This document shows, piece after piece, positions 4,797 through 50,577 of a stretch of 64,000 nucleotides of DNA. The stretch's first letter is position 1. Every line of letters starts with the position of its first letter. The notes under the pieces were generated by a model. That model was not told the DNA's origin and searched no databases. It saw only the letters and a program-made list of their open reading frames with translations. A program made the position numbers and the translations under genes. Source of the DNA: a virus; IMG/VR virus record IMGVR_UViG_3300044987_001050, positions 1 to 64,000 of that record. One strand, written 5' to 3'.

Positions 4797-4799
4797 TGA

Positions 4800-5121: not shown

Positions 5122-5122
5122 T

Positions 5123-8072: not shown

Positions 8073-8101
8073 TTTACATTCGTGCATTGATTTGATACAA
8101 T
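8073..8101 (+). promoter_or_regulatory. Early promoter (TTTACA-N17-TACAAT)
   Basis: 17-nt spacer; ATG at 8107. Confidence 0.7.
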
Positions 8102-8106
8102 TCGGC

Positions 8107-8421
8107 ATGCCTGAAACGGATTCGCTTAAATATGTTCGAGAGCACATTGCTTTAGGAACTGGCTGGACATTCGTGTTAGCGCACGACTCAAAGTATTGGA
8201 CAGACCCATCAGGTCGCTATGTTGGCGGTGGGACGCATGACCCACTTCCAAAGTACATAGACTCTCTCGAGGACATTCAGGAAGCCGTGAAAAGCTTGAG
8301 TCCTACTCAATTCCGCGAATGGAAATCTGCGCTTTGCAATGTTTGTGCTGCTCTTGGGCATGATCCTATCATTGCTTCCGCGCATTCCCGGACGCTCGCA
8401 CTTTACAAAATTCTCCCTTGA
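8107..8421 (+). CDS. Hypothetical protein (phage ABA-sandwich-like)
   Basis: IA..GW...LPKY..SL pattern. Confidence 0.45.
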   Translation: MPETDSLKYVREHIALGTGWTFVLAHDSKYWTDPSGRYVGGGTHDPLPKYIDSLEDIQEAVKSLSPTQFREWKSALCNVCAALGHDPIIASAHSRTLALYKILP

Positions 8422-8434
8422 ACTATAACACGTA

Positions 8435-35906: not shown

Positions 35907-35935
35907 TTTACATCCTCACCAAAATTTGATATAAT
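35907..35935 (+). promoter_or_regulatory. Promoter (TTTACA-N17-TATAAT), likely leaderless mRNA
   Basis: ATG exactly 7 nt after the -10 hexamer. Confidence 0.75.
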
Positions 35936-35942
35936 AACACAA

Positions 35943-37010
35943 ATGAAAATCGCTTCTGTAGAAAAACTAATTTCTGTTGAACCGCATCCAAATGCGGACC
36001 GTCTTGATCTCGTCAAGGTGTTGGGTTACCAATGCGTGACCGAAAAGGGCCTGCATTCCGCTGGCGACCTCATCATCTACATTCAGCCTGACTCTGTCTT
36101 GCCTGAAGATGCAGCATGGGCTGAGGGCTATCGCAAGTACTCTCCTGGTCGTATCAAGGCCGTGAAGCTCCGCGGTGAATTCTCGGAAGGCATCATCGTG
36201 AAGTTCGAGCAAGTTGGTTTGGCTAATTCCTACGGGACTGAAGGATTTGATGTTGCTGAATTGCTTGGCGTCAAACACTACGAGCCACCGCTTCCCCAAG
36301 ATCTTTCTGCAAAGGGTGCCCTTCCTTTCGGCATCCCGAAGACCGACGAAGAGCGTTGGGAGAACATCACGGGCCGCTTGCCTTTCGGTGAGAAGGTTGA
36401 TGTGTCTCTGAAGATCGACGGCCAATCATGGTCTGCATATTACAATGTCAAGACAAAGGAGTTCGGCGTGCTGGGCCGCACGATGGAATACAAGGAAGAG
36501 TGCTCCAACCGTTACACAGCACAGATCGAACGGTATGACATCAAGAACAAGCTTGTTCAATACTGCACTGAGCTTGGCATGTCGCTTTGTATCCGAGGCG
36601 AGTCTTATGGCGATGGCCTTCAAGCGCACTCATTCAATCCGCATGCGAAGGAAAAGGCAGGTCTTGCTATCTTCTCCGTATATCTCATCGATGAACGCCG
36701 CTACGCTCGTAAAGGTCATCCGTTCTATTACCCGCTTGTTGCTGAACAACTCGGCCTTCCAACTGTGCCAATCCTCGAGCGTGACGTGGTGCTTACACAG
36801 GAACTCATCGACAAGTACTCCGTTGGTCTCAAGAAGATTGACGGCAAGCCATTCGAAGGCGTCGTGATCAACCACGGTGACTACGTCATCGAGCGCGAGT
36901 CGAACATCATGGTTTGCCCTGACGGAGTTGAACGCGATGTTGGCGGCGCAAAGACATACGTTGCTCATTCCTTCAAGGTCATCTCGAAGCACTACGATTC
37001 ACAGAAGTGA
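35943..37010 (+). CDS. RNA ligase, DRB0094 family (N-terminal OB/tRNA-binding-like domain)
   Basis: HPNADRLD, KLRGEFSEG, PKTDEER, KIDG, RGE, EGVV and SFKVI motifs. Confidence 0.88.
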   Translation: MKIASVEKLISVEPHPNADRLDLVKVLGYQCVTEKGLHSAGDLIIYIQPDSVLPEDAAWAEGYRKYSPGRIKAVKLRGEFSEGIIVKFEQVGLANSYGTEGFDVAELLGVKHYEPPLPQDLSAKGALPFGIPKTDEERWENITGRLPFGEKVDVSLKIDGQSWSAYYNVKTKEFGVLGRTMEYKEECSNRYTAQIERYDIKNKLVQYCTELGMSLCIRGESYGDGLQAHSFNPHAKEKAGLAIFSVYLIDERRYARKGHPFYYPLVAEQLGLPTVPILERDVVLTQELIDKYSVGLKKIDGKPFEGVVINHGDYVIERESNIMVCPDGVERDVGGAKTYVAHSFKVISKHYDSQK

Positions 37011-37601
37011 TCCGTGTTTGAGCAAAAGATAACGCGATACTCCGGTAAGCTGCTCTGCTTCAATAATGCTAGAGAAGGTCTTGCCGGAGTATTCAATCTT
37101 CTTTGATGTATGCCGCTTTGAACTTATAGACATTTTTCTACGAGTAGCATCGGAAGCAGAAGATCCCAATTTAGCAATAGACAAATTTTTCCTATGCTCG
37201 TCTGAGAATGTCATTCCTTTCTTAGCAACAGATATTCGTCTGCGTGATTCATCAGATCGCTTGCATGATGCCGGATGCTCTTTCCCAAATTTGCCAACAA
37301 GCCGCTGACCATTCTCTCTAGTAAATCCACCAAGCCCGCCTGGTTTTAAGTTATACACATTTCCACTTGAGATGAATTCATCTGTTACTAATTCACGTTC
37401 TTTAGCATATGCTTCAGTCGCGTTGTCAAACTCATGAAGCGTAACTCTTTTGAATTTTGATCTTCCGTGTTTCTTGATTGCTCTAGAGATTAGAGTGCCT
37501 GAACCAAGATAGTCATCATGATCTCCGCCATTTCTATGAACACCAATGTAAATTTTGCCAGTCTCTAAATTAGTAGTTTCATACACGATGTACATAACCA
37601 T
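36999..37601 (-). mobile_element. Free-standing GIY-YIG (Seg-like) homing endonuclease with NUMOD3 repeats
   Basis: IVYETTN..GKIYIG..YLGSG..AIKKHG..F, YNLKPGG and repeated SDE.R..IS motifs. It is the only convincing minus-strand gene, is AT-richer, and has a late-like AATAAATA just upstream. Confidence 0.9.
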
Positions 37602-38316
37602 ATTTATTTCCAAATGAGTGACACTTCAAGAGGCGGAGACGCCTACATCCCGTCTATGACGTGGGCCTACGCAGCTGAAGAGTTGCGTAGGCTCGCCTCG
37701 CAATTTACAATAGAGCGTAAGCAAGATCTTGAGAACAAGTTCATGTTTCGTATTGTGAGCGTTCAAAAGAAGCGGACTGATAAACCCGCCATCCCAGTGC
37801 ATATAAATTTTGATATGCACACGAAAACGATGCAACAGCAAGAGACCCAAGCGATTCTTTCGACGTTCGATCAACTCGATGCGCTCGTCGAGAAATGCGA
37901 CCGGCTCGAGCATGAGCGCGATCTTTGGAAAGCCGAAGCAGAACGTTGGCGGGAAATCGCCATGACGAAAGAAGACTAATGTGTTTCATCCCGCCGCCTG
38001 CGCCACCTGCACCTCCGTCGCCTCGCAATATAGTTCACTGCCGAGGTTGCAACTCTCTAGTTGATGCTAGCGTCTGGGGAGACCTTTGCTCAATTTGTGT
38101 TGTCACTGGAGGAAAAAGTCCTCCGGCTGTAGAAGAGACTGTCTCACCTGGGTGGCATCCAACATCAATTCAAATAAAAGGTTGGGAACCTACATTACGT
38201 CCACAACGACCACTCCGAACGTCTCGTGAAGTTGTTTGTGAATCGCCTAAGGCGCCGATGTCATTCCAAGAGGAGATGGACGCAGCTCTTGCCTTTAATC
38301 CATTACAAGATTTGAT

Positions 38317-38345
38317 TTTACAACGCACGAAGAATGTGATATAAT
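38317..38345 (+). promoter_or_regulatory. Promoter (TTTACA-N17-TATAAT), likely leaderless mRNA
   Basis: ATG 7 nt after the -10 hexamer. Confidence 0.75.
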
Positions 38346-38352
38346 TACTAAT

Positions 38353-39102
38353 ATGCTACCAATCTATAAAGTTGCCGACATTCGGCAAGCATTCGTTGAA
38401 AAATACCTAAGAGGAGATATCGTAACAAATGACACAGGTTCGTTGTCCGGTGCTGATACAGTCGAGATCCTCGGCGCTTCATTCATTGCTGACGAGTCTG
38501 CAATCTTTGGTGTACCCAACTATCCTTACATCCAAAACGAGATTGATTGGTACATCTCGAAGTCGCTCAACGTGAATGACATTCCTGGCGAGGTGCCTAA
38601 GATCTGGAAGGCGGTTGCTTCTCCTGATGGTCTCATCAACTCGAACTACGGGTACCTCATCTTCTCCAAAGAAAACGGTGCACAGGTTTGCAATGTCATC
38701 GACACGCTATTGCAGTCGCCGTCGTCTCGACGTGCAACAATGATCTACACGCGGCCGACAATGCATGTTGATTTCAACACGAATGGCATGCAAGATTTCG
38801 TTTGCACGAACGCCGTGCAGTACATCATTCGCAACAATCGACTGCACGTGATCGTTCAGATGCGCTCTAACGACGCATGGGCAGGCTTCCGCAATGACCT
38901 GGCTTGGCAACTCTTCGTTCAGAAGTTTGTGCTTTATGCTTTGAATGCGCCACGTTTCAACAGCTTATATGAGCTAGGTGATGTTCATTGGCAGGTGTCA
39001 TCGTTGCACGTCTACCAACGCCAATTCTATTTGCTCGATCACTTCGCGAAGACGGGCGAACACCACATCACGCTCGAAAACTATAACAAGCTTTACAAAT
39101 GA
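38353..39102 (+). CDS. 42: dCMP hydroxymethylase-like protein (T4 gp42 family, thymidylate synthase fold)
   Basis: TVEILGASFIADE, EIDWY, INSNYG, SRRA.MIYTRP.M, DFVCT and MRSND..GFRND (Asp specificity residue as in gp42), SLHVY. Confidence 0.85.
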   Translation: MLPIYKVADIRQAFVEKYLRGDIVTNDTGSLSGADTVEILGASFIADESAIFGVPNYPYIQNEIDWYISKSLNVNDIPGEVPKIWKAVASPDGLINSNYGYLIFSKENGAQVCNVIDTLLQSPSSRRATMIYTRPTMHVDFNTNGMQDFVCTNAVQYIIRNNRLHVIVQMRSNDAWAGFRNDLAWQLFVQKFVLYALNAPRFNSLYELGDVHWQVSSLHVYQRQFYLLDHFAKTGEHHITLENYNKLYK

Positions 39103-39355
39103 ACATGGCTGAACAACATCGTGAAGACATCATCACCAAGGCAGAGGTTGAGGCTGAGCTTGATCAGCTATTAGGCAAGATCAGAAGCGAGCGCCAGCCT
39201 AACACACGCGGAGTTATGCTCCTAACACAATTCCTCGCAGGCCTGATGTTACAGTATGGAAATATTGATCAGTCCAAGCTTGACGCTCACGAGTTTATGT
39301 TTTGGCTTACTCATAATGGCGACGGAACTCTAATCACCCCGGCAATCAAAAACGC

Positions 39356-39625
39356 ATGACAACATATCAAACAATTCAGGAAGTACTTGAGAAGGTAATC
39401 GGCGAAGCTAATACGCCTGAGCTGCGCGCAAAGGTTACGAAAGAACTTGAGGATCGTCTGAAGGAGTGTGTTCGTATCAAAGTCATTTGCGACGAGACTA
39501 CTAATCCGCCGTCAGTGATTTATATGAATGAGTTGCGCGGGATTGTCATTAAGGGAGATGCTAAGAAACCTGAAGAGACACAGTACCGATTCAGGATTAG
39601 TTCAACCGGAATAAATGTTGTATGA
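39356..39625 (+). CDS. Stand-alone tail-sheath C-terminal-like fragment
   Basis: IGEANTPELR...VICDETTNPPSVIYMNEL resembles gp18 FE.N....R...V.CDETNN.P.VI..NE. Confidence 0.55.
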   Translation: MTTYQTIQEVLEKVIGEANTPELRAKVTKELEDRLKECVRIKVICDETTNPPSVIYMNELRGIVIKGDAKKPEETQYRFRISSTGINVV

Positions 39626-40110
39626 TAACACTTGAAAACATTAACAAGCAAGACGCGTGTAAGAACCTGCTCGAGTCTCCAGCACCTATCGTTGTTGGCC
39701 GCCTAATCGATGATATCCGCGCGTACATTTCGTTCGTGGACGCGCTTACTAAGCAAGTAAGGATTCATCCTATTGATGAAGACGATCTGAACGAACTAAT
39801 CGACAAACACATACCTTCATGAAGATGGCATCCTTAATAGAAACTCGCGAGCAGAAAAAGATCTGCTCATTGATAAACGAACTCGAAGAAATCCTTTTCA
39901 AGCATGTTGATTCGCCTGGCGTAGACATAACAGACCTCGAGATACCAAATCAACTTGTAAGACATGTAGCTCGTCAGATGTTGTTTCATACAAAGGCTTT
40001 TCCTGGCGTTCATGATCTCGACTATTCTCGTCTTGGCGTGCTAGCAATAACTCCGCCCAACTTCTCGATCAACTATTACACCACCTGGGCCTTCCAAGAA
40101 ATTTACGACA

Positions 40111-40497
40111 ATGCTGTTTAAGAAAGGTGATCCTATTGCGGTTGACTTCGATGGAACTTGCGTAACACACGAATATCCGAAGGTCGGTCGATTCATCGGT
40201 GCACAGAAAGTGTTGCATCGTATTGTTGCTGAGGGCGGTAAGCTTATCTTATGGACAATGCGAAGCGGCGAACATCTCGATGATGCGCTTGCTTGGTTTG
40301 ACGAGAATGATATTCCGCTCTACGGTATTCAGGTAAACCCAGGCCAGTACACATGGACGACTAGTCCTAAGGCGTATGCAAAGATTTACATCGATGATGC
40401 CGCGCTTGGTTGTCCCATGAAGCCAGGCTTTAAAGATGAACGTCCTTTCGTTGACTGGGACGCAGTAGAACTCTTACTATTCGGAAACAATGCATAA
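40111..40497 (+). CDS. HAD phosphatase (BT0820-like)
   Basis: IAVDFDGT, LILWTMR and K.YA.IYIDD motifs. Confidence 0.82.
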   Translation: MLFKKGDPIAVDFDGTCVTHEYPKVGRFIGAQKVLHRIVAEGGKLILWTMRSGEHLDDALAWFDENDIPLYGIQVNPGQYTWTTSPKAYAKIYIDDAALGCPMKPGFKDERPFVDWDAVELLLFGNNA

Positions 40498-40825
40498 AGA
40501 AGACCTCCAAGAAATCGTTGACTTGTCCGATATGTTAACGACCGACATCGAAAGTTTCATCGGCGAGTTCAACGATGAACTAACGAGAAGTCGACTCACG
40601 GAAATCATGCGAATGTACTTCGTTAGAGTTCGCGCGATAACACGTCTTCCGATTGACATCAACAAGATTGGGTTGTGCAACATCAGTAAGATAGCGCCAA
40701 CTATTGGATCTGACTTTGGTTTACCTACAGACAGATCTGAAAACGAAATAAGAGCTAATGCATACACCCAAAGTGCCTTTCGAGATATCTCCCGCATTAT
40801 TGAAGACAATCAAGTTTCGTCCTGA
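40490..40825 (+). CDS. Hypothetical protein
   Basis: Contains FIGEFNDELTR, weakly sheath-like. Confidence 0.45.
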   Translation: MHKEDLQEIVDLSDMLTTDIESFIGEFNDELTRSRLTEIMRMYFVRVRAITRLPIDINKIGLCNISKIAPTIGSDFGLPTDRSENEIRANAYTQSAFRDISRIIEDNQVSS

Positions 40826-41285
40826 TGGGTACGTGGACAATTGGTTCTCGAACATGTTACCATTCGATCACCCGCTTGTCGTTGACGGAATAACATACTT
40901 CTCGGTCGAGAATTTTTACCAAGCTTCAAAGATTGAGGCATACCGGCGCGAGTTGCGCGTCGAGATTGCAAGCATGAGCCCGCCTAAGTCGAAGGCATGC
41001 TTCCGGAGGGAACCTGACAAGTTTGTCGTGATGCAGGATTGGACGACGGGCCGCAAGCTCCGAACAATGCAGTATGCGCTCAACTGGAAGTTCTTGCCAG
41101 GCACGTCATGGCACGAGAAGCTTATGCAAACCCAAGCCGATCCTATCATTGAGTTCAACAACTGGAACGACACGTTCTGGGGCTGGGACATCAGGAAGGA
41201 GACAGGCTCAAATCATTTAGGCAGACTACTGATGGAAATGCGCGCGCGGTTTGCTCAAAGCACGCTCGACTCTTTCATGTCATAA
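40758..41285 (+). CDS. Second NADAR-family protein (start may be TTG at 40800)
   Basis: WFSN, SVENFYQASK, KF, E.NNWNDTFWG and G.NHLGRLLM motifs; ends STLDSFMS. Confidence 0.85.
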   Translation: MHTPKVPFEISPALLKTIKFRPDGYVDNWFSNMLPFDHPLVVDGITYFSVENFYQASKIEAYRRELRVEIASMSPPKSKACFRREPDKFVVMQDWTTGRKLRTMQYALNWKFLPGTSWHEKLMQTQADPIIEFNNWNDTFWGWDIRKETGSNHLGRLLMEMRARFAQSTLDSFMS

Positions 41286-41290
41286 TGTTA

Positions 41291-41319
41291 TTTACATATG
41301 ACGTCCAATAGTGTATAAT
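41291..41319 (+). promoter_or_regulatory. Promoter (TTTACA-N17-TATAAT) heading the modification operon
   Basis: ATG 7 nt after the -10 hexamer. Confidence 0.75.
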
Positions 41320-41326
41320 CATAAAA

Positions 41327-41695
41327 ATGGAAATACTCAGCGTTAACACAGTAAAAGAAACCGAAGCGATGCGCGTCCTTGACGAGTGCCGTGCAACGAT
41401 GGAAAAGAAGGGGAACGATTATCAGAATCCGCACTCGCGTATTCGACAAGCGGACTATTATCCTGCAGGCGTTGCGACGATACTTGACATCGTGCATGCC
41501 AAGGTTCTCCGCATGAGGTCCGTCATCGAAGCGATGGAGAACGATCCTAACTACGTCCCCAACTTCGAATCGTTCGAAGACTCATGCAAGGATGCAATCA
41601 ATTACCTTGCCTTCGGTGTCTCATACTCTCGCGGCAAGATTGATGGCCAAGATCCTTCGCGAGATTTTCTTAACCGCATGACACGCAAAGCATGA
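41327..41695 (+). CDS. Nucleotide-modification-associated all-alpha protein (DUF1599-like, possible dNTP pyrophosphatase)
   Basis: KKGNDYQ...KVLR...EDSCKDAINY pattern. Confidence 0.65.
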   Translation: MEILSVNTVKETEAMRVLDECRATMEKKGNDYQNPHSRIRQADYYPAGVATILDIVHAKVLRMRSVIEAMENDPNYVPNFESFEDSCKDAINYLAFGVSYSRGKIDGQDPSRDFLNRMTRKA

Positions 41696-42204
41696 ACATA
41701 ACATGTCCTTTCAGGCACGTCGTCACCGACGTTGATGGTGTCCTCACGGACGGTTCATTTCATTATTCCCCTGACGGTAAAACGCACAAGGTCTTTGGGC
41801 CGCATGATTCTGACGGTGTCAAGATCTTTCGTCGTTTGGGAATTGCTGTCTATGCGATCTCGGCGGATAAGCGTGGGTTTCCAATCACGCTAGCGAGGAT
41901 GAATGACATGAATGTCCCCATTGAATATGTTACTGAGAACAACCGATATCGGTTTGTCGCAGATAAGTTTGTGTTAGGCGATACATGCTTCATCGGTGAT
42001 GGCATTTTCGACGCGGCCCTCCTCGCGGATTGTTCATTCTCGTTCTCTCCATCGAACGCGCCTGACTTCGTTCGACAATATGCTAAGCACAACTGCAAAG
42101 CCCGCGGCGGTAACGGTGTCCTTCTTGAAGCAGCACTATATACTATCAGCACCTGGTTCCCCAATGAACTTGATGCCCTACTTAAAGACCTAAGACTACT
42201 ATGA
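41692..42204 (+). CDS. KdsC-like HAD sugar-phosphate phosphatase
   Basis: DVDGVLTDG, KVF..HD, FIGDGIFD and GGNG motifs. Confidence 0.85.
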   Translation: MNITCPFRHVVTDVDGVLTDGSFHYSPDGKTHKVFGPHDSDGVKIFRRLGIAVYAISADKRGFPITLARMNDMNVPIEYVTENNRYRFVADKFVLGDTCFIGDGIFDAALLADCSFSFSPSNAPDFVRQYAKHNCKARGGNGVLLEAALYTISTWFPNELDALLKDLRLL

Positions 42205-42725
42205 AGATCATCCTCGACGAAATGACTCGAATGGGCGACGCCCTCGACACAAAAGAAGTTCAGACATACGTTAACTCTCTCGCGTATAGGTTAATATCCA
42301 AGCCAGCTATCGTAGGTCTCGCGGCGGGTCGTATGGGATACGCGTTGCGAGCATTCATCATGCGCCTCAATCACATGGGTTTCAACGCAAGCATGATAGG
42401 CGACACGAACGTCCCTCTTATCACCGCGAATGATATCGTGCTCGTGAACAGTTCATCAGGTGAAACTCCGTCGATCCTTTTGTATGTTAAGCAAGCCCGT
42501 GACGCAGGTTCGCGTGTTTACACGACGACGTGCAACCCGATGTCGTCCATCGGCAGACTATCACATGAAGTTATTCCTCTCCCGAAAATCAATTCGGTTC
42601 AGCTGATGAAGTCGGCTTACGAACAATTCTCGATGCTGTTATATGATCACATCGTCATGGAGCTTTCATCAAAACTAAACCTAGACCCTGAGTTCACGAC
42701 TCATAATCACTCAATCCTCGAATAA
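42201..42725 (+). CDS. SIS-domain sugar-phosphate isomerase (HxlB/PHI-like)
   Basis: AGRMG...F.MRL.H.G, SSSGET, EQ and terminal HSILE motifs. Confidence 0.85.
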   Translation: MKIILDEMTRMGDALDTKEVQTYVNSLAYRLISKPAIVGLAAGRMGYALRAFIMRLNHMGFNASMIGDTNVPLITANDIVLVNSSSGETPSILLYVKQARDAGSRVYTTTCNPMSSIGRLSHEVIPLPKINSVQLMKSAYEQFSMLLYDHIVMELSSKLNLDPEFTTHNHSILE

Positions 42726-43417
42726 TGAAACCTATCTTCGGCGCATCAGTTATATGCATGGATCACCTCAACCTCGAACGCGATGTTCGGTTGTGTGCTG
42801 AACTCGGAGTCGACTACCTCCACCTCGACGCAATGGACGGCCATGCCGTTCCTCGTTATGGTGTCTATCCTGAGCAGGTTGCACGCATCGCGACCATCAC
42901 TGACCTCCCGCTTGACCTTCACCTCATGGTGTCGGATGTCGAGTTCGCGATTAGTCAGTTCGATATCTCGAAGGTCAGGACAGTAACATTCCACTTGAAC
43001 GGTAATGAAGGGCGAGCGCTTTACCTCATGGACAAGATTCGTGAAAAAGGAGCACGGCCAGGCCTTGTCATGAACCTTGACATGCCGCTCTACGCGTTGC
43101 ACCGCTTGATTGACAACGGAGAACTTGACCTCGTGATGTTCATGGGTATTCATCCTGGTGTACTCGTTCAAACGGCACGTCCTGAAACAGTTACTGATGA
43201 CATATTCGGCTTCCTCTCGGTTTATCCTAACGTCGAGATCCAAATCGACGGCGCTCTTAACTTCGACACCTTCGAACAATTTAGGAACGACGGCGTTGAT
43301 TCATTCGTCGGCGGGACGGGCACTATATATAAGAACGTAGATCGCAACACAAACTGGGAAACCCAAGAAGCGATCATCCGCACGAACATGCAACGCATCA
43401 AATCATTTCTCCAGTAA
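42725..43417 (+). CDS. rpe: Ribulose-phosphate 3-epimerase family protein (Rpe/AlsE-like)
   Basis: SVICMD, HLDAMDGHAVP, DLHLMV, TFH, MGIHPG, IQIDG and VGGT motifs. Confidence 0.85.
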   Translation: MKPIFGASVICMDHLNLERDVRLCAELGVDYLHLDAMDGHAVPRYGVYPEQVARIATITDLPLDLHLMVSDVEFAISQFDISKVRTVTFHLNGNEGRALYLMDKIREKGARPGLVMNLDMPLYALHRLIDNGELDLVMFMGIHPGVLVQTARPETVTDDIFGFLSVYPNVEIQIDGALNFDTFEQFRNDGVDSFVGGTGTIYKNVDRNTNWETQEAIIRTNMQRIKSFLQ

Positions 43418-45000
43418 TGTATAAAGTCGTAATCCCATCTGCCGGGTTAGGTTCACGCGTCGCCGCGCATTCGCCTAACATCAACAAAGCACTAATCACG
43501 ATTGGCAACAAGCCTGTCATCTCGCACGTCATCGACAAGTTCAAGAAGGACGTCGAGATCGTTGTGTTATTAGGTCATCACGGATCTTACGTAAGGCAAT
43601 CGCTCGAGGCGATCTATCCTGACCGTAAGATCTCTTTCGTTGACGTCGAGCTTTATCAAGGTGAAGGATCCGGACTTGGTCTTACGTTAGGATGCGCCGA
43701 ACATCTGTTGCAGTGCCCATTCATATTCATCTCGAACGACACAATCATTCCTGATGAAGTCATTGATCTTGACCCTAACATCACGGGCAATTGGATGGCT
43801 TACTATACCGCGACAAAAGCTGACTCGTTTAACACGTCGGTCTACCGCACCGTCGAGATTGACAACGGTGTTGTGACAAACATCAACCCGAAGGGAATCG
43901 TATGCCCTAACATTTATGTTGGTCTATGCGGTGTCAAAGATTATGACGGTTTCTGGAAGAGCATGGACAACCCGCGTGCGATTCCTGTCGGCGAATCATA
44001 CGGGCTTAAGTTTCTCAATAACATCAAAGCGATTCCTGTCCCATCATGGTGCGACACCGGGAACGTCGAATCACTTCTTAAGACGCGTGAACTGCTAGAG
44101 ACTCACGAGTTCAACATCGTTCACAAGAATGATGAGGCTATCTGGTTTTACGATAACCGCGTGATCAAGTTCAGTGTTGACGATAAGTTCATTGCTGATC
44201 GAGTCAAGCGCCTTCAAGGATTGGGCAATCAAATCTTTCCTTCACTGATCCACGTTGACAAGAACCTCTACGTCTATAACCGAATCGTCGGCGATGTTGT
44301 AAGCAAGACACTCAATGGGACTAACGTCATCGACATCCTCGACTTCGCGAAGAAGGAGATGTGGGATAACACTTCGAATGCTACGCCTGAACTCGTCGAG
44401 GCGTGTTATTCGTTCTACCGTGATAAGACGTTCAAGCGTGTCCAACAATTCTTCGACGTCTTTGAGTGTGTTGACACGGTGGACACGATTAACGGCGTGA
44501 CGATTCCGCCAATGTATGTGCTGCTTAATCGCGTTGATTGGCGCGACCTATGTGATCATCCGCATGCCTCGAAGTATCATGGCGACTTCCACAACGAAAA
44601 CATTCTAGTCACGCCGTCCGGCAATCCAATGCTGATCGACTGGCGCCAAAACTTTGGGTATGATAACCTAGACATCGGCGATGCATACTATGACTTCGCT
44701 AAGTTCATGCACGGGCTCATTGTTTCTCACCATCAGATTTTGTGCAACCACTTTACGGTCGAGCGAGATTCCTCGAATAACATCACGATAGATATTTTAC
44801 GGCCACACCGTTTAGTCGAAGCTGAGGAGACGTTCGTGAAGTGGCTGAAGGAGAATAATTATGACGCATCGCGCGTGAGATTGCTTACCGCACTAATCTT
44901 CCTGAACATCGCAGCGCTTCATGAGTATCCTTACTCGCTATACCTATTCTATCTTGGCAAACATCTACTGAACAAATACCTAGTCTCGACACTATCATGA
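43417..45000 (+). CDS. Sugar-phosphate nucleotidyltransferase fused to an APH/choline-kinase-like kinase
   Basis: N-terminal VIPSAGLGSR..NKAL and WCDTG; C-terminal HGDFHNENI, LIDWRQ and GDAYYDFAK. Confidence 0.85.
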   Translation: MYKVVIPSAGLGSRVAAHSPNINKALITIGNKPVISHVIDKFKKDVEIVVLLGHHGSYVRQSLEAIYPDRKISFVDVELYQGEGSGLGLTLGCAEHLLQCPFIFISNDTIIPDEVIDLDPNITGNWMAYYTATKADSFNTSVYRTVEIDNGVVTNINPKGIVCPNIYVGLCGVKDYDGFWKSMDNPRAIPVGESYGLKFLNNIKAIPVPSWCDTGNVESLLKTRELLETHEFNIVHKNDEAIWFYDNRVIKFSVDDKFIADRVKRLQGLGNQIFPSLIHVDKNLYVYNRIVGDVVSKTLNGTNVIDILDFAKKEMWDNTSNATPELVEACYSFYRDKTFKRVQQFFDVFECVDTVDTINGVTIPPMYVLLNRVDWRDLCDHPHASKYHGDFHNENILVTPSGNPMLIDWRQNFGYDNLDIGDAYYDFAKFMHGLIVSHHQILCNHFTVERDSSNNITIDILRPHRLVEAEETFVKWLKENNYDASRVRLLTALIFLNIAALHEYPYSLYLFYLGKHLLNKYLVSTLS

Positions 45001-46238
45001 ATATTCTAATCGGCAAAACAGGCCGCTCTATTTACTTCAACTCGAACAGTCGTGGGTTCACGGCCGGTGATGAAGAGGCGCCTATGTTATATCGGCTCCT
45101 CGCGAAAAGAAATCCCGAGCATACGTTCTATCTTATCGGCAGGTCCGACATTACACGGATGCGTGACAAGGAGACGACGGGTTCGCTATCATCCTTCTTC
45201 GATGAAGTTGAGGAGGAAGAAATCGACGAAGGTTTGCCGCCTAACATAATCAACCTCTTCGACGACTGGACGAACAAGGTTACGATTGATGATCATGTTT
45301 GGCTCGAGGAAAAGATTCGTCGACTGGACCTGAAGTTCGATGCAGGTGTTATTTTCATCGGACCTACGCCAGCCGTGGGAATTCCTAATGTAGGCATTGA
45401 ACGCCTTGACGGAAAAGGAAAGGCGAAGACACTGGAGATGTTTCAAAAGTACTATGCTGGCATTGTGCATACGCTCAATTGGACGAACACGCCGTTCATC
45501 TCAATATGTTCAGACCCTAAGTATGCTCCGCAATACGCACGCGATATCATCAATGATGAACGGGTAGTGCTTAGTCAAATCAACCAAACATACGCGCGCA
45601 AACGAATCAAGTCATACGAGGAGTCGTTGACGTTGCGTGACGTCAAGCTGAAGTACATTTACTCCGGAATCGAAACTGTCTTCCTGCTTGGCGAGAAAAA
45701 GATTGAATGGCTTGACCGTCCAAAGACGAACAAGTTTGTCATTGGCCTTAATGGCGGTCTATCTCGTGATGAGTTCATCAAGGATTGGATTCTCAAGGGT
45801 GATACGACGGGCATTAAGGTTTATGGCGAATGGGCGGACGAGTTCACGACGGGTTGGCCCGATGTCTTTGAGAACAAGAGTATCCGGTCGGTCGAGGACG
45901 TGTTCCTCAATTCGCGTTACACGATCATTGCGCCTCCGCATAAACCAACAGGAAACTTCGTAACTCAAAAGTTCTGGAAGATGATTTACTATGGCATCAT
46001 CCCGTTCTTCCATCCAAATTACGATACCGACAACATCTTCAACGTGCCAGCTATCCTTCGAGTTAAGACACCCAAGGATATGTGGGAACGAATCAAATTC
46101 CTTGACGAGAATCCCGAGACATATAAGCTCGTGCAGAAGCGGCTGTATGACATGCTTGACGACAGCTACTTCAACGGAGACTTCCTTTACAACGTCGTCA
46201 AGACGAACCTCGAGCAGTACACCGGCGTCGTTCTATAA
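44997..46238 (+). CDS. Putative DNA glycosyltransferase (GT-B, beta-glucosyltransferase-like)
   Basis: Directly follows the NDP-sugar genes; DP motif, VYGEW and T.KFW..I..GIIPF..P.YD GT-B C-terminal pattern. Confidence 0.6.
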   Translation: MNILIGKTGRSIYFNSNSRGFTAGDEEAPMLYRLLAKRNPEHTFYLIGRSDITRMRDKETTGSLSSFFDEVEEEEIDEGLPPNIINLFDDWTNKVTIDDHVWLEEKIRRLDLKFDAGVIFIGPTPAVGIPNVGIERLDGKGKAKTLEMFQKYYAGIVHTLNWTNTPFISICSDPKYAPQYARDIINDERVVLSQINQTYARKRIKSYEESLTLRDVKLKYIYSGIETVFLLGEKKIEWLDRPKTNKFVIGLNGGLSRDEFIKDWILKGDTTGIKVYGEWADEFTTGWPDVFENKSIRSVEDVFLNSRYTIIAPPHKPTGNFVTQKFWKMIYYGIIPFFHPNYDTDNIFNVPAILRVKTPKDMWERIKFLDENPETYKLVQKRLYDMLDDSYFNGDFLYNVVKTNLEQYTGVVL

Positions 46239-46258
46239 CCTATAAATCAAATCAGCCA

Positions 46259-47509
46259 ATGAATAAACAAACCAAAATTACATACGCGCCAATCATCCCG
46301 CTAATCGGTGGTGAACCTCTGGGTGTTATGACAGCACTCAATGGGCAACTGCCTGAGTATGTGTTATCATATTCGCCTTTCGCCGACAACGATTCGCACT
46401 ACATCAAATATCTCCGTGATGTTAAGGGATTCACGGGTGACTATGCTGTCATCGATGATCCTGCATTCGAGAACTATGTTCCAAAGCAGGTTGATGTTGT
46501 CATGAGCACTTGCCCGTGTGCAGGCTTGTCGTCGTTGTCCGTTGCATCGTCAGCTGATTCGCCCGTGAACGAATGGCTTTACACCTCGGCTGAGTATGTG
46601 TTATCTACCGTGAAGCCCAAGGTCTTCTGGGGAGAAAACGCGCCGCGTCTATTCTCATCGTTCGGTAAGCCCGTTGCTGATAAGCTTCATGCAATCGGTA
46701 AGAAGTACGGATATTCGCTCAACCTTTACTACACGGAGTCTAAGCTGCATGGCCTTTGCCAGAAGCGTCCGCGTACATTCTACTTCTTCACACAATCCGA
46801 AGTTGCTCCTATCTTCAAAACCTGGAGACGCGATCTCAATCCTGTTGAGGACATCCTCAAGAAGAAGACACTCAAGAAGGATCCAATGAATGTTCTCATC
46901 AACAAAGCGGACCCAATGGATAACCCATGGGTTGCATACGCGGTTGAGAAGGTCGGCGGCGGAACACTCAAAGGTGTTTATGATTACATCGAAGAAACGC
47001 AGAACCTCATCAACGGTGCGGACGGCGACTTCGGTCAGTCACTCCCAGAGGTTGCTGATTGGATGGACGCACAGGACAAACCTACGTTCTCGCATGTCGC
47101 GAAGCGCGCACGCGCAATGCAAGGCAAGCTTGATGACGGCAAAGGTTATTGGTCGCACGGCGTCACGATGTCGAAGGGTGCTATCCCATCGTTGATCGGC
47201 GCAATGCCAGGTTCGTTAATCAATCCATTCACAGGGACATTCCTAACACTTCGTGATTGTCTTCGAATCATGGGTATGCCCGAGGACTTCAATCTCGCGT
47301 CCGAGAATCCTGTTTCGAAGTCTAACCACATTTGTCAGAACGTGCCGGTGACAACTGCGCGTGACATGATGGACGGCATTCTTCAATACTTGAACGACGA
47401 TTGCGAGTTCTCTAACTCCGATTACATCAAGCAGTCTAACCGAAACTTCTCGGTCATCTCAGTCAACGCCCAAAAGGAAACTACGGCGTCCCTTGATTCC
47501 TTCTTCTAA
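46259..47509 (+). CDS. Atypical C5-cytosine methyltransferase-like protein
   Basis: Motif IV CPCAGLS, motif VI GENAP and motif VIII QKRPRTF. Motif I is divergent (IPLIGG). Ends SLDSFF. Confidence 0.7.
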   Translation: MNKQTKITYAPIIPLIGGEPLGVMTALNGQLPEYVLSYSPFADNDSHYIKYLRDVKGFTGDYAVIDDPAFENYVPKQVDVVMSTCPCAGLSSLSVASSADSPVNEWLYTSAEYVLSTVKPKVFWGENAPRLFSSFGKPVADKLHAIGKKYGYSLNLYYTESKLHGLCQKRPRTFYFFTQSEVAPIFKTWRRDLNPVEDILKKKTLKKDPMNVLINKADPMDNPWVAYAVEKVGGGTLKGVYDYIEETQNLINGADGDFGQSLPEVADWMDAQDKPTFSHVAKRARAMQGKLDDGKGYWSHGVTMSKGAIPSLIGAMPGSLINPFTGTFLTLRDCLRIMGMPEDFNLASENPVSKSNHICQNVPVTTARDMMDGILQYLNDDCEFSNSDYIKQSNRNFSVISVNAQKETTASLDSFF

Positions 47510-47531
47510 TACACACACCACACAATAACAT

Positions 47532-48608
47532 ATGTCAGCAATACTCGACAAACTCAAGAAGAACTCCCGCGTCAAATCCGCGGAGATCCTATGTGACTCA
47601 CCTTTCTTTGGAAAGGTTGAGTTGACGACAACGCCAGTGCCGATGATCAACGTCGCGCTCTCAGGCTCACTTAACGGTGGTCTCGCTTCAGGCCTTACTG
47701 TTCTTGCAGGTCCATCCAAACACTTCAAGACAAGCTATGCGTTGCTTATGGCCGCGGCATATCTGAACAAGCACAAGGACGCATGTCTGATGTTCTATGA
47801 TTCGGAATTCGGTTCGCCTCAAGCATACTTCGAATCGTTCGGGATTGATCCTGCGCGTGTTCTACACATTCCTATCAAGGATGTCGAGGAGCTGAAGTTC
47901 GACCTTGTCAACCAACTTGAAAACCTTGATCGGAAAGACAAGGTCATTATCATCATCGACTCAATTGGTAACCTTGCATCGAAGAAGGAGTTGGAGGACG
48001 CAATCGACGCGAAGTCGGTCACGGACATGTCGCGTGCAAAGTCGATCAAAGGCTTGTTCCGTATGGTCACGCCGTTCCTCACGATCAAGGATGTTCCTTG
48101 CTTGGCCGTGAACCACACATATCAAGAGATGGGCTTGTTCCCGAAAGCAGTCGTCTCAGGTGGTACTGGCATCTATTACTCCGCATCCAACATTTGGATC
48201 GTCGGTCGTCAACAAGACAAGGTAGGTACTGAGGTTCAAGGTTATCACTTCGTCATCAATGTCGAGAAGAGCCGGTTCGTCAAGGAGAAGTCCAAGATTC
48301 CGATTTCGGTTTCATGGGACGGCGGCATCGACAAGTACTCAGGTTTGCTTGACCTTGCGTTGGAAGCAGGTTTCATTCAGAAGCCATCCGCCCAATTCTG
48401 TCAGTTGCTTGACTTTGCGACCGGAGAGTTTGGTACTGCGAAGGTTCGTCCTAAGGCAATCCCTGATTCGTACTTTGCTGAACTGGTCAACTATCAACCC
48501 TTCGCGGACTACATCACGAACAAGTACACGATCGGACTTCGTCAAATGATCTCAGACGACTCAGACGAAGTTGGTCCTGACACGGATGAGGAGGACGAAG
48601 ATGCCTAA
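47532..48608 (+). CDS. uvsX: UvsX RecA-like recombinase
   Basis: NVALSG, AGPSKHFKT, YDSEFG, IDSIGNLASKKE and GGTGIYYSA motifs. Confidence 0.95.
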   Translation: MSAILDKLKKNSRVKSAEILCDSPFFGKVELTTTPVPMINVALSGSLNGGLASGLTVLAGPSKHFKTSYALLMAAAYLNKHKDACLMFYDSEFGSPQAYFESFGIDPARVLHIPIKDVEELKFDLVNQLENLDRKDKVIIIIDSIGNLASKKELEDAIDAKSVTDMSRAKSIKGLFRMVTPFLTIKDVPCLAVNHTYQEMGLFPKAVVSGGTGIYYSASNIWIVGRQQDKVGTEVQGYHFVINVEKSRFVKEKSKIPISVSWDGGIDKYSGLLDLALEAGFIQKPSAQFCQLLDFATGEFGTAKVRPKAIPDSYFAELVNYQPFADYITNKYTIGLRQMISDDSDEVGPDTDEEDEDA

Positions 48609-48891
48609 CACCAAGATAGTCCAAGTCGACATCGAATTCTCGCGTGTCAGATGGTTAGGCGAACGCACTAATGAAGTTCATCAACTTATCCGAGATGAAC
48701 TTATCAAGTACAGTGCTGAGCGTGGTAGGCAAGCGCCTACCCAGGTCATGGTTGAGGTGTCGCCTAACCTAGCAAACGAGTTGAGCTTTGGTGACGCAAC
48801 CAACTTCAACTGTAGCCTGCTAGGCGTGCCTGTTAGGTTCTCCGTGAATTGGACACTCATCAGGAATTTCATTCGACTAACCATTTCTTGA
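48601..48891 (+). CDS. Hypothetical protein (weak capsid A-domain-like pattern)
   Basis: VSP.LA.EL...LLGVPV. Confidence 0.4.
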   Translation: MPNTKIVQVDIEFSRVRWLGERTNEVHQLIRDELIKYSAERGRQAPTQVMVEVSPNLANELSFGDATNFNCSLLGVPVRFSVNWTLIRNFIRLTIS

Positions 48892-48896: not shown

Positions 48897-49232
48897 ATGG
48901 AAGAGGAAATAGATTACAATTTTGTAGAACACGCCGATTCGACTCTTTACTCGATTCGATTGATGACCGGCAATTGGGCTGGTGTTATTTACACTTATGG
49001 GCGTGTTTCTATTAGGGAGGATCGGCGCAACGACACTGCAGTCCTCTCATTTGATTACCGCATCGAAGATGTAGGTGACACCTCATTCGCACCAGAAGAT
49101 CTGGAGACGAGTGATGCGTTTAGAAATATGATAGGTGATATCCTTGCCGATATCCTATCAAGTGAAGAAATACATATAGGCAAAGATGCAACCAAATTTA
49201 CAGACGATAATCGTAAAGGGACTACTCCATGA
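48897..49232 (+). CDS. gp40-like protein between uvsX and gene 41
   Basis: Syntenic position; IRL..G...GVIYTYG.V...LSFDY...IGDIL pattern. Confidence 0.55.
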   Translation: MEEEIDYNFVEHADSTLYSIRLMTGNWAGVIYTYGRVSIREDRRNDTAVLSFDYRIEDVGDTSFAPEDLETSDAFRNMIGDILADILSSEEIHIGKDATKFTDDNRKGTTP

Positions 49233-50577
49233 TGAGACATTCTGCCGTAAGGCGTTACCACACATAAAGCCTGAATACTTTGAGGGCGAGCATCGAGTTG
49301 TTTATGATCTGATTCTTAAGTTCATTTCCAAGTATAACAAGCTGCCTAACTCTGCAGTACTTGACATTGAATTCCGCGCATCAAATCATAACGTAGGCGC
49401 TGACACGATCAACGTCGCGAAACTAATCTCCGACGTTGATACGCCAGAGATTGTTGAGTATGATTGGTTAGTTGACTCGACCGAGAAGTGGTGTAAGGAC
49501 CGTGCAGTCTACATCGCAATCATGGAGTCGATTCAGATCATCGACGGCAAGGCTGAAGGTAAGGCGGAGGGGATGATTCCTGACATCCTCTCGAAGGCGC
49601 TTGCAGTAACATTCGACACTAACGTAGGCCACGACTACCTCGAGGACGCGGAGAAGCGGTATGATTACTATCACCGCGTCGAGGATAAGATTGCGTTCGA
49701 CATCGACATGTTGAACAAGATCACGAACGGCGGTGTATCGCGCAAGACATTGAACATCATTCTTGCAGGTACTGCCGTGGGTAAGTCGCTCGCTATGTGT
49801 CACCTCGCGGCTGCGGCGATGGCCCAAGGTCGTAGTGTGTTATACATCACGATGGAAATGGCGGAGGAAAAGATCGCTGAACGTAATGATGCTAACCTCT
49901 TCGACATCAACATTGATCAGATCACGAACCTCTCGAAGGAGATGTTCAATCACAAGATCAAAGGCATTGCTGCAAAGACACACGGCAAGCTGATCATCAA
50001 GGAATATCCAACAGGAGCTGCTCATGCCGGACACTTCCGGGCGCTCCTGATGGAACTGAAGCTGAAGAAGAACTTCGTTCCTGACATCATCTTCATCGAC
50101 TACCTGAACATTTGTGCATCGTCTCGAATCAAAGGTGGAGCTGAAGGCGGTACATACTCGCTCATCAAGTCGATTGCTGAAGAGCTTCGCGGTTTGGCGG
50201 TCGAGTTCAATGTTCCGATTTGGTCAGCCACGCAGGTCACTCGATCCGGGTATGCCTCGTCCGACGTTGAAATCACGGACACGTCTGAATCATTCGGTCT
50301 TCCTGCAACAGCGGACTTGATGATCGCCTTGATGTCAACTGAACAACTCGAGAAGATGGGTCAGATCATGATTAAGCAACTCAAGAATCGTTACAATGAT
50401 GTAGGCAAGTACAAGCGATTCACGGTCGGTGTTGATCGAGCTAAGATGCGGTTGTATGACATTGCTGACCCAATGGCTAACATCGCGAACGAGTCGTCCT
50501 CGCAATCAAATGTCGTGCAGACACCGTTCAGCGCAGGTAAGCCCGAACGAAAACAGTTCACTGGATTCAAGACATGA
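49186..50577 (+). CDS. 41: Replicative DNA helicase (T4 gp41, DnaB-like)
   Basis: LAGTAVGKS, MEMAEEKIAER, IDYLNIC, AEELRGLAVE, SESFGLPATAD and LKNRY motifs. Confidence 0.95.
   Translation: MQPNLQTIIVKGLLHDETFCRKALPHIKPEYFEGEHRVVYDLILKFISKYNKLPNSAVLDIEFRASNHNVGADTINVAKLISDVDTPEIVEYDWLVDSTEKWCKDRAVYIAIMESIQIIDGKAEGKAEGMIPDILSKALAVTFDTNVGHDYLEDAEKRYDYYHRVEDKIAFDIDMLNKITNGGVSRKTLNIILAGTAVGKSLAMCHLAAAAMAQGRSVLYITMEMAEEKIAERNDANLFDINIDQITNLSKEMFNHKIKGIAAKTHGKLIIKEYPTGAAHAGHFRALLMELKLKKNFVPDIIFIDYLNICASSRIKGGAEGGTYSLIKSIAEELRGLAVEFNVPIWSATQVTRSGYASSDVEITDTSESFGLPATADLMIALMSTEQLEKMGQIMIKQLKNRYNDVGKYKRFTVGVDRAKMRLYDIADPMANIANESSSQSNVVQTPFSAGKPERKQFTGFKT

Follow-up and report, generated by a model that had tools for sequence, protein, structure and literature searches.

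The sugars carried by phage DNA determine which restriction, CRISPR and glycosylase defences work against it. Known phage-encoded pathways for the sugar donor are few and include UDP-arabinofuranose in RB69-type phages (PMC13326640) and NDP-sugar epimerases or mutases. Members of this Afh-type arabinosylation pathway are RB69 gp55, gp52:53, gp51 and gp46:47, DLP3 gp79-83, and AfhE and AfhF of HY126 (He et al., via PMC13326640); the modified nucleotide made by RB69 and DLP3 is reported to be 5-hydroxy-dCMP (Lee et al., PMC13326640). In another group of phages, a C5 methyltransferase, a TET enzyme (5mYOX) and a glycosyltransferase (GT) are described as giving post-replicative glycosylation of 5-hydroxymethylcytosine (hmC) (PMC8256090; bioRxiv 10.1101/2023.12.21.572611), and GT-B-type phage GTs have been noted beside thymidylate synthase (TS) homologues, methyltransferases, epimerases and APH phosphotransferases (bioRxiv 10.1101/2023.12.21.572611). 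Here we analyze a locus at positions 38353-47509 of a 64,000-nucleotide stretch of DNA (the window), which is the first 64 kb of the 83-kb IMG/VR record IMGVR_UViG_3300044987_001050, about 47% complete according to CheckV, from a T4-like phage of lake water. The locus is very probably an hmC glycosylation island with its own NDP-sugar pathway, and the sugar is probably neither glucose nor arabinose. Its narrower assignment to a C3-epimeric hexose is tentative, and the overall reading, an hmC glycosylation island with its own C3-epimeric hexose-type donor route in a T4-like lake phage, is in our judgement slightly better than an even bet.

The first gene of the locus (38353..39102, + strand) encodes a TS homologue belonging to PF00303 (E 9e-13, 48.4 bits against a cut-off of 24.3) and phrog_160. 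It matches 1028 phage records, the best of them gp42-type dCMP hydroxymethylases, and has an identity of 54.1% to T2 gp42 across 88% of its length; in a three-way alignment the identity is 51% to T2 gp42 and 24% to RB69 ORF048. The window and T2 share the residues MRSND...GFRND, where RB69 has MRSQN...MQLD. The protein retains Cys151, aligned with the Cys of T2 gp42, as well as Asp174 and Asp182, the equivalents of D169 and N177, respectively, with the D169 position mapped through the RB69 and T2 sequences and not through E. coli ThyA. A role of Asp in place of Asn177 in cytosine specificity is familiar from the T4 literature. The same substitution is linked to cytosine specificity in PMC13326640, which also proposes Asn at the position of ThyA Asp169 as a marker of 5-hydroxy-dCMP synthases, all D169N homologues tested having given 5-hydroxydeoxycytidine. 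By this marker the TS homologue of the window does not qualify as a 5-hydroxy-dCMP synthase, and 5-hydroxycytosine (5hoC) as the base was rejected, as Asp is retained at the D169-equivalent residue. Because Asp is kept at both the D169 and the N177 positions, the product is predicted to be 5-hydroxymethyl-dCMP, and the base hmC rather than 5hoC. Both diagnostic positions are likewise filled by Asp in all 22 TS open reading frames (ORFs) extracted beside relatives of the window GT (24 matches, two of which, cut by contig ends, were dropped). The gp42-type dCMP-modifying enzyme named in the original prediction is thus borne out by an identity of 51-54% to T2 gp42 and by the retained active-site Asp residues. 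Its reference to RB69-type arabinosylation of modified cytosine needs updating on the base, which in those phages is 5hoC made by a D169N TS homologue, and not hmC (PMC13326640).

The genes assigned to the donor sugar form a compact run of four on the same strand. The first (41692..42204) encodes a KdsC-like HAD phosphatase with the HAD motif I DVDGVLTDG; its scores are below the cut-offs of the matched models (NF058599, 78.4 bits; TIGR01670, 60.3 bits against 106.95; NF007019, 45.2 bits against 208), and no GmhB model is among its NCBIfam matches. The second (42201..42725) encodes a single-domain SIS isomerase of the HxlB/PHI family, matched over its full length by TIGR03127 (116.7 bits, cut-off 160), with YckF, MJ1247 and an HPS-PHI fusion as the nearest solved structures. 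It does not score as a KdsD/GutQ-type isomerase (21.5 bits with the kpsF model for KpsF/GutQ, cut-off 203.7), and BLASTP against RB69 gp55, the arabinose-5-phosphate isomerase, gave a non-significant E of 0.1. The third gene (42725..43417) encodes a ketose-phosphate 3-epimerase of the Rpe/AlsE family (PF00834, E 1e-34, 119.8 bits) that represents a cassette-specific subfamily: it scores 115.9 bits with the rpe model (cut-off 212.6) and 111.2 bits with the AlsE model (cut-off 271), so that neither equivalog level is reached. Its best solved match is the allulose-6-phosphate 3-epimerase AlsE (3ct7, 88.3 bits versus 81.3 for the best Rpe), and its identity is 24% to E. coli Rpe and 30% to E. coli AlsE. 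Residues H33, D35, H66 and D175, which we take to be the metal-binding and catalytic ones, are invariant in the alignment with both E. coli proteins, while the motifs VPRYG.YPE and HPGVL are cassette-specific. The similarity of SVICMD to a motif of AlsE, noted earlier, is correct for the window protein; among the cassette homologues, however, the segment varies (SLITMD, SVVCTD, SLICGN and others), and we rejected it as an AlsE signature.

The fourth gene (43417..45000) encodes a fusion of an N-terminal sugar-1-phosphate nucleotidyltransferase (PF12804/PF00483) and a C-terminal APH-fold sugar kinase (PF01636). The kinase motif HGDxHxEN with the invariant D408 and the nucleotidyltransferase motif GxGxR are kept, and 666 homologues have identities of 42-54%. 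Over its full length (residues 1-522) the protein matches phrog_4098 (E 1.9e-20), the family defined by RB69 ORF052/053 (AfhE-type), and by sequence it is a distant relative of AfhE. A phage-encoded NDP-sugar route, as originally proposed, is consistent with the detection of all four families. The succession of isomerase, kinase, phosphatase and nucleotidyltransferase, likened before to the heptose pathway, does match the families found here, and it is equally that of the Afh pathway.

The cassette of KdsC-like, SIS, Rpe-like and fusion genes is not phage-specific and is widespread in bacteria. A scan of one bacterial genome per species detected 220 confirmed loci that encode the fusion protein, and gene neighbourhoods were counted in the best 80 of them, 61 of which have a KdsC-like gene near the fusion gene. 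The order KdsC-SIS-Rpe-fusion seen in the phage recurs in a SAR86 single-cell genome, an Ignavibacteriae metagenome-assembled genome (MAG) and a Clostridia MAG, and four Lachnospiraceae-type MAGs contain the cassette genes rearranged. The SAR86 proteins are 36% (KdsC), 60% (SIS), 46% (Rpe) and 43% (fusion) identical to those of the phage; upstream of their genes lie phosphoglucose isomerase, UvrC and a CDP-alcohol phosphatidyltransferase, and downstream Wzz, UDP-glucose dehydrogenase and an NAD-dependent epimerase. A different and commoner form was scanned at two loci, those of Campylobacter concisus and Chlorobium ferrooxidans, where a GatZ/KbaZ-like protein and a small cupin of the mannose-6-phosphate-isomerase type lie between KdsC and the fusion, and C-methyltransferases come after. 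Kinase, phosphatase and nucleotidyltransferase appear to be a constant core, in front of which the epimerase (Rpe-like or GatZ-like) and the isomerase (SIS or cupin) can be exchanged. A literature search, in which most subscription journals were not covered, found no characterisation of either the bacterial cassette or the phage donor pathway.

The SIS and Rpe-like genes occur together in all seven complete bacterial loci and in all ten viral loci that hold either. In five out of five bacterial carriers, a canonical Rpe scoring 247-289 bits is encoded elsewhere in the genome, and the cassette copy scores lower (141-211 bits). Because the epimerase gene is always coupled to the SIS gene and is an extra, divergent copy beside the housekeeping Rpe, these data support the epimerase as a dedicated pathway step rather than a spare Rpe, in line with the significance attached to it in the original prediction.

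The phylogenetic tree of the fusion proteins was built from 96 sequences (18 plus 78 bacterial), after matches of <30% identity and ORFs of <430 amino acids had been dropped. Sixteen GT-linked fusion proteins, namely that of the window, 14 viral ones and one from a bacterial bin, form a clade of their own with a support of 0.987, whereas separation of all 18 from the 78 bacterial sequences by one split is supported at just 0.48. Recent capture of the cassette from bacteria was rejected in view of the separate GT-linked clade. The sequence from the bacterial bin lies on a 2.7-kb contig assigned to a Planctomycetota MAG (L006), an eighth bacterial-bin locus that breaks off inside the Rpe gene; it carries Rpe, the fusion (53% identity) and the GT (49%), clusters with the phage fusions and is probably phage DNA in a bacterial bin.

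The following scheme can be proposed for the modification. The gp42-type enzyme, judging from its family and active-site residues, would convert dCMP to 5-hydroxymethyl-dCMP, which would then be incorporated into phage DNA. The Rpe/AlsE-like enzyme would epimerise a ketose phosphate of central metabolism at C3, most likely fructose-6-phosphate to allulose-6-phosphate, and the SIS enzyme would turn the epimerised product into an aldose phosphate (allose-6-phosphate or altrose-6-phosphate). The APH-fold C-terminal half of the fusion would phosphorylate the anomeric hydroxyl, the KdsC-like phosphatase would take the terminal phosphate off the resulting sugar bisphosphate, and the N-terminal half of the fusion would join the sugar-1-phosphate to a nucleoside monophosphate. 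Finally, a GT-B enzyme resembling T4 beta-glucosyltransferase (BGT) would transfer the sugar onto the hydroxymethyl group of hmC in DNA. The order and substrates of these steps are suggested by analogy with AfhE/AfhF (PMC13326640) and with the heptose pathway. DNA glycosylated in this way would be protected, like that of T4 and RB69, against restriction and CRISPR nucleases. In its most explicit form, the scheme has a hexose of the D-allose/D-altrose type, epimeric at C3 and so far not reported from DNA, that is made from fructose-6-phosphate by a four-enzyme, mutase-free route and O-linked to the hmC of the virion; this is possible, though a little more doubtful than the hexose assignment taken by itself.

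Three comparisons of protein families speak for a hexose of the allose/altrose type rather than a pentose: the best solved relative of the epimerase is the allulose-6-phosphate 3-epimerase, the family of the SIS protein acts on hexulose-6-phosphate, and the commoner bacterial cassette replaces SIS and Rpe with the GatZ/KbaZ-like protein, related to hexose-6-phosphate enzymes, and the cupin. In addition, since the epimerase seems to be a dedicated step, the 3-epimer that it forms would not be otherwise available, which favours the conversion of fructose-6-phosphate to allulose-6-phosphate. The best-surviving alternative, which we nevertheless consider unlikely, retains the C3 epimerisation but makes a pentose: the epimerase would form xylulose-5-phosphate, which the SIS enzyme would convert to xylose-5-phosphate or lyxose-5-phosphate, and NDP-xylofuranose or NDP-lyxofuranose would result for transfer onto hmC. 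The epimerase does score as high with the rpe model as with that of AlsE, the Afh route of phages is described as using a pentose-5-phosphate (PMC13326640), and an enzyme with UDP-xylose pyrophosphorylase activity is reported from the Shewanella phage Thanatos (PMC12838424). This enzyme, TH1_063, is however a different protein of 300 amino acids, and the DNA sugar of that phage is now read as arabinose on 5hoC (PMC13326640). Moreover, because xylulose-5-phosphate is a central metabolite that should already be abundant, a pentose route would need no epimerase of its own, yet this gene is the constant partner of the SIS gene. The nearest solved relatives, AlsE and PHI, are both hexose-phosphate enzymes, and the GatZ/KbaZ-like proteins of the sister cassette also speak against a pentose.

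Slightly less probable is D-arabinose, as in the RB69-type phages, with the SIS protein acting as an arabinose-5-phosphate isomerase, the Rpe-like enzyme topping up ribulose-5-phosphate out of xylulose-5-phosphate, and UDP-arabinofuranose transferred onto hmC. Auxiliary genes of the pentose phosphate pathway are common in phages, and the fusion shares its PHROG with RB69 ORF052/053. The locus also contains an AfhF-type small HAD phosphatase (40111..40497, + strand) with the motif DxDGT, which belongs to phrog_1238 (E 3.8e-29) and reaches 75.1 bits with NF046079, below the cut-off. RB69 gp51, the AfhF analogue, falls in phrog_1238 as well (E 1.9e-42); despite the common family, BLASTP yielded no alignment between these two proteins, and their MAFFT identities of 27-33% are no test of kinship. 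The gene lies 3 kb upstream of the fusion gene in a separate operon, the adjacent phosphatase being of the KdsC type, and it is matched in none of the 80 related viral loci considered below, an absence that counts against arabinose. Although single-domain SIS arabinose-5-phosphate isomerases are known (3etn is cited in PMC13326640), the SIS protein of the window sides with HxlB/PHI and not with KpsF/GutQ or the RB69 isomerase, as the scores given above indicate. An enzyme that merely boosts flux would not be needed in strict coupling to the SIS gene or as a divergent second copy in all five Rpe-bearing bacteria, and the GT is unrelated by sequence to the RB69 arabinosyltransferase family phrog_3891.

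Returning to glycosylation of hmC by a C3-epimeric hexose, the enzyme proposed for the transfer is a GT-B protein of 413 amino acids (44997..46238, + strand). It has no Pfam, PHROG or NCBIfam match and belongs by sequence to no named DNA glycosyltransferase family, with 109 homologues in a set of 5.8 billion proteins. The AlphaFold2 model, based on 42 sequences (pLDDT 91.3, pTM 0.88), has a GT-B fold. In a Foldseek search of the PDB, the six top structures are all T4 BGT (E 6.1e-8 to 5.9e-7; TM-scores of 0.46-0.53 normalised by the query and 0.55-0.63 by the target), and among the viral models of BFVD the second match is named DNA beta-glucosyltransferase. The genomic position is similar to that of known DNA glycosyltransferases: the order in T2 is 43-imm-42-beta-gt-uvsX, in RB69 the arabinosylation genes lie between 43 and uvsX, and in the window the order is TS...cassette-GT-MTase-uvsX, where, unlike in T2, a C5-methyltransferase (MTase)-like gene separates the GT from uvsX. 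On the strength of its predicted fold, position and neighbours, we infer that the GT transfers a sugar to hmC in DNA.

An alignment of the GT was used to search viral contigs and detected relatives at 167 IMG/VR loci; a search with the single fusion protein had given 61 pattern matches, none of which was confirmed. Gene neighbourhoods (tblastn) were counted in the best 80 of the 167 loci. In 73 of these 80 the gene after the GT is C5-MTase-like. TS homologues were detected in 24 loci, fusion genes in 23 and KdsC genes in 12, and the 10 loci with SIS are also those with Rpe. Eight loci have the order KdsC-SIS-Rpe-fusion together with the GT and the MTase-like gene; in locus L165 the order differs, and L129 has no KdsC match. 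Three records that lack a TS gene close to the GT encode a divergent TS homologue elsewhere. At other GT loci the sugar genes are of two sorts: an Afh-like fusion accompanied by a small HAD, or a HAD together with a nucleotidyltransferase and an NAD-dependent epimerase/dehydratase. Two individual arrangements were also observed: in L165 (1234-9996) two pairs of GT and MTase-like genes flank SIS-Rpe-fusion-KdsC, and L097 (10834-13259) has two tandem MTase-like paralogues.

The reverse search with an alignment of the MTase-like protein gave at least 581 confirmed IMG/VR loci. In the best 80 of these (L168-L247), a TS homologue was found within 6 kb upstream in 42 and a DUF1599-like gene in 37, and only 18 of the 60 loci with upstream room have the GT family of the window. 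Four loci without a tblastn match to this GT have in its place a gene similar to T4 alpha-glucosyltransferase (PF11440), one of them together with a TET-associated GT (PF20691), and in some of these gaps a dCMP deaminase, an NAD-dependent epimerase or a nucleotidyltransferase is present too; in the one of the four that was scanned beyond the MTase-like gene, UvsX follows it. The closest relatives by identity of the MTase-like protein (56-60%) have GTs that are just 30-33% identical and different sugar genes. Since related loci keep the MTase-like gene and change both the sugar genes and the GT family, the TS, DUF1599, MTase-like and UvsX genes are a frame, inside which the glycosylation module is swapped. 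The MTase-like gene itself is far commoner than the GT family of the window and forms the edge of islands with GTs of the T4 alpha-GT-like, BGT-like or TET-associated types. A cytosine hypermodification locus, the core of the original prediction, is in agreement with the gp42-type enzyme, with a T4-BGT-like GT between 42 and uvsX, and with the DNA alpha-GT homologues of the sister islands.

A related gene set was observed in Enterococcus phage 9183 (L001; MT939241, Denvervirus), where positions 4257-9209 encode a thymidylate kinase, a TS homologue, a dUTPase, a small HAD of phrog_1238, a nucleotidyltransferase-kinase fusion and a GT that is 26% identical to that of the window. The TS homologue has Asp at both diagnostic positions, and glycosylated hydroxymethyl-pyrimidine DNA is predicted for this phage from its gene set.

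A role away from DNA, in which the cassette and the GT would remodel surface polysaccharide of the host or glycosylate a protein of virion or host, is quite improbable: the bacterial cassette does occur in surface-glycan loci, as in SAR86, where it lies beside Wzz, UDP-glucose dehydrogenase and an epimerase, and sugar clusters of jumbo cyanophages have been interpreted as capsule modification (PMC7824862), but the phage GT sits between gene 42 and uvsX like T2 beta-gt, its top solved structures are T4 BGT, a DNA cytosine-directed gene stands behind it in nearly all of the viral loci counted, dCMP-type TS homologues are encoded near it or elsewhere in the same genomes, T4 alpha-GT homologues fill the same slot in sister islands, and no Wzx/Wzy, lipid-carrier or signal-peptide functions are present among the scanned genes of the locus. 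The C5-methyltransferase/TET route was rejected, as no dioxygenase is encoded by the genes of the locus, to which the scan was limited.

The C5-cytosine-methyltransferase-like enzyme (46259..47509, + strand; PF00145, 53.6 bits against a cut-off of 22) is encoded at the conserved downstream edge of the island. Residues G17, G18, C87, E126, N127, Q168, R170, R172 and Q360-P363 are invariant in 30 sequences and conserved in 59; they presumably correspond to motifs I, IV (PC), VI (ENV), VIII (QxRxR) and X (GNxVP) of this enzyme family. Some motifs deviate, with PCA in place of PCQ, ENA of ENV, and QNVPV of GNAVP, and the direct comparison with M.HaeIII is weak (E 5.6e-4).

Several observations weigh against hmC glycosylation with a C3-epimeric hexose. 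Every enzymatic step of the scheme is inferred, and all four sugar enzymes fall under the curated cut-offs of every characterised family. PHI, the nearest family of the SIS protein, interconverts two ketoses, so that an aldose as the product of the SIS step has to be assumed. BLASTP of the fusion against RB69 ORF052/053 gives an identity of only about 24% (E 2e-4 and 0.013), and with two phosphatases at the locus, the KdsC-like one and the small HAD, either could serve the pathway. The likeness of the GT to T4 BGT does not exceed the modest TM-scores given above at an identity of 10-11%, and GT4 enzymes such as BshA score nearly equally. The MTase-like enzyme, with catalytic motifs that appear intact, would have no obvious substrate on DNA in which all cytosine is hmC: either the replacement of C by hmC is partial, or the hmC picture is incomplete. 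In the 83-kb record no dCTPase/MazG, dUTPase_2, dCMP deaminase or thymidylate-kinase-like gene was matched at E <=0.1, with the record about half complete as stated, and for this reason full replacement of C by hmC is not established. At the same threshold and in the same partial record, there is no match to AGT (PF11440).

The remaining genes of the locus are less directly connected with the sugar. The 122-residue DUF1599-like protein (41327..41695, + strand) opens the run that contains the cassette. It has no direct Pfam match and is assigned through its homologue in L097 (50-51% identical), which matches PF07659 (DUF1599, Nucleotide modification associated domain 1; E 2e-7), and through its Atlas neighbour cluster, 48% of which is PF07659. 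There are 801 homologues, the best 120 listed being 67-97% identical, and in related viral loci the gene adjoins TS homologues. The ten best Foldseek matches of its AlphaFold2 model (pLDDT 88.8) are dCTPase/DCTPP1/MazG-like, at non-significant values (E about 1, TM-scores of 0.36-0.48); VIA-align against 48,161 chains returned unspecific helical hairpins only (Z <=7.2), and phmmer against the PDB nothing meaningful. A gp56-type dCTPase is therefore a lead only for this protein. The TS homologue is followed by four small overlapping ORFs of 86, 89, 66 and 100 amino acids (39099..40121, + strand), and none of the five small ORFs of this operon (39099-40121 and 40490-40825) has a Pfam match above the cut-off. 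A NADAR-domain protein (40758..41285, + strand; PF08719, E 2e-16; NF053876, 56.9 bits, below the cut-off) is probably outside the sugar pathway and may be encoded by a counter-defence gene rather than a pathway member. Its gene overlaps the preceding ORF (40490-40825) by 68 nt and lies between the TS and sugar operons.

All these genes are organized in two operon-like runs on the + strand. The first (38353-41285) comprises the TS homologue, the four small ORFs, the small HAD phosphatase, the ORF without a family and the NADAR gene; the second (41327-47509) comprises the DUF1599-like, KdsC-like, SIS, Rpe/AlsE-like, nucleotidyltransferase-kinase fusion, GT and C5-MTase-like genes. Between 41327 and 46238 adjoining genes overlap by 1-4 nt, and a 20-nt gap precedes the C5-MTase-like gene. 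The genes named in the original prediction were all found on this strand at their positions, as was the tight packing of the run; its inventory had overlooked the small HAD phosphatase and the NADAR gene. The single promoter that it placed ahead of the run was recovered as well, a sigma-70-like TTTACA-17-TATAAT (11/12) at 41291..41319 (+) in a 41-nt gap, ending 7 nt before the ATG. A second sigma-70-like promoter TTTACA-17-TATAAT (38317..38345, +) ends 7 nt upstream of the TS start codon. Exact TTTACA-N17-TATAAT occurs three times in the window, compared with 0.02 expected; the three promoter spans (35907-35943, 38317-38353 and 41291-41327) each stop exactly 7 nt from an ATG and stand before the RNA ligase, TS homologue and DUF1599-like genes, respectively. 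No Shine-Dalgarno sequence was seen between promoter and ATG at 38317 and 41291, the two that were inspected. Because the promoters end 7 nt from the ATG without a Shine-Dalgarno sequence, the early mRNAs might be leaderless or near-leaderless. Within the locus there is no TATAAATA late promoter; with strong early-type promoters at the head of both operons, the island is predicted to be expressed early.

Downstream of the locus are UvsX (47532..48608, +; PF00154, PF21134), a boundary marker outside the system, and a DnaB-type helicase like gp41 (49186-50577). Just upstream, a GIY-YIG/NUMOD3 homing-endonuclease-like gene (36999-37613, -) abuts the RNA ligase gene (35943-37010). The stretch 41327-47509 is present in 20 metagenome runs of lake-water or freshwater origin (19 studies), and 17 of these runs are possible sources of the record; no RNA run is among those listed. 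In three lake metagenome runs outside the set of possible sources, contigs cover 38000-48700 and bridge the gene junctions, and their listed long pieces are identical to the window except for G>A at 43016 in one X18 contig. Because the contigs of these three runs agree and bridge the junctions, the gene order is not an assembly artefact. In the contigs of four runs no joint lies within the locus, the sole joint and the loose ends being in uvsX and resembling the uvsX of other phages. When 50,697 phage records were searched by Megablast with the 9.2-kb locus, none matched.

In this locus classical gp42/hmC chemistry is combined with a complete donor pathway of a different sort. A DNA nucleoside is far simpler to analyse than a surface polysaccharide, and the phage is the most direct route to the product of the cassette; if the proposed scheme is true, identification of the sugar on its DNA would at once assign a function to this cassette in hundreds of lineages of bacteria. 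The C5-MTase-like enzyme, itself conserved, would in that case work on the modified DNA or beside it in a new way, which raises the concrete question of the role of a C5-directed enzyme on hmC DNA. In aquatic T4-like phages the island may be regarded as one of glycodiversification, with TS and DUF1599 on one side, swappable sugar genes with three GT families, and then the C5-MTase-like gene and UvsX.

Among known systems, hmC glucosylation in T4 and T2 is one with which the locus shares an orthologue of gp42, a GT gene between 42 and uvsX and a BGT-like fold. T4, however, uses UDP-glucose of the host and encodes no sugar pathway, whereas the window encodes a four-enzyme donor pathway, and its GT has no Pfam match and an identity to BGT of about a tenth in structural alignment. 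The Afh pathway is similar in the nature of its steps, with a TS homologue acting on dCMP, an isomerase, a kinase/nucleotidyltransferase, a HAD phosphatase and a GT-B DNA glycosyltransferase (PMC13326640); its genes in RB69 occupy the same slot near uvsX, and phrog_4098 and phrog_1238 are common to both loci. The differences are that the TS homologue of the window keeps Asp169 and is of the hmC and not the 5hoC type, that its isomerase is PHI-type instead of KdsD-type, that a dedicated 3-epimerase and a KdsC-type phosphatase, the latter in the cassette beside SIS, are added, that its fusion is distant and its GT is in another sequence family, and that a C5-MTase-like gene is attached.

The bacterial cassette has orthologous genes in the same order, as in SAR86, but is found there in a polysaccharide locus, whereas the product of the phage cassette is proposed to serve a DNA glycosyltransferase; the GT-linked phage fusions also form their own clade, and most bacterial forms have the GatZ-like protein and cupin in place of Rpe and SIS. 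The pathway of NDP-D-glycero-D-manno-heptose (GmhA, HldE/HddA, GmhB, HddC) proceeds through a SIS isomerase, an anomeric kinase, a HAD phosphatase and a nucleotidyltransferase, the same order of chemistry as is proposed for the window cassette. It differs in that the kinase of the window is of the APH fold and not PfkB or GHMP, the phosphatase is KdsC-like, the SIS protein is PHI-type, and the 3-epimerase has no counterpart. With the C5-methyltransferase/TET/GT systems the locus has in common a C5-cytosine MTase-family gene adjoining the DNA GT; among its scanned genes the dioxygenase is missing, and since gp42 chemistry should supply hmC before replication, the MTase-like enzyme would be unneeded for the acceptor. 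The system as a whole is of a known kind, combining a pre-replicative modified cytosine, a phage-made NDP-sugar and a DNA glycosyltransferase, with a donor pathway undescribed in the literature found, and the DNA of this phage probably carries a sugar that is new to DNA.

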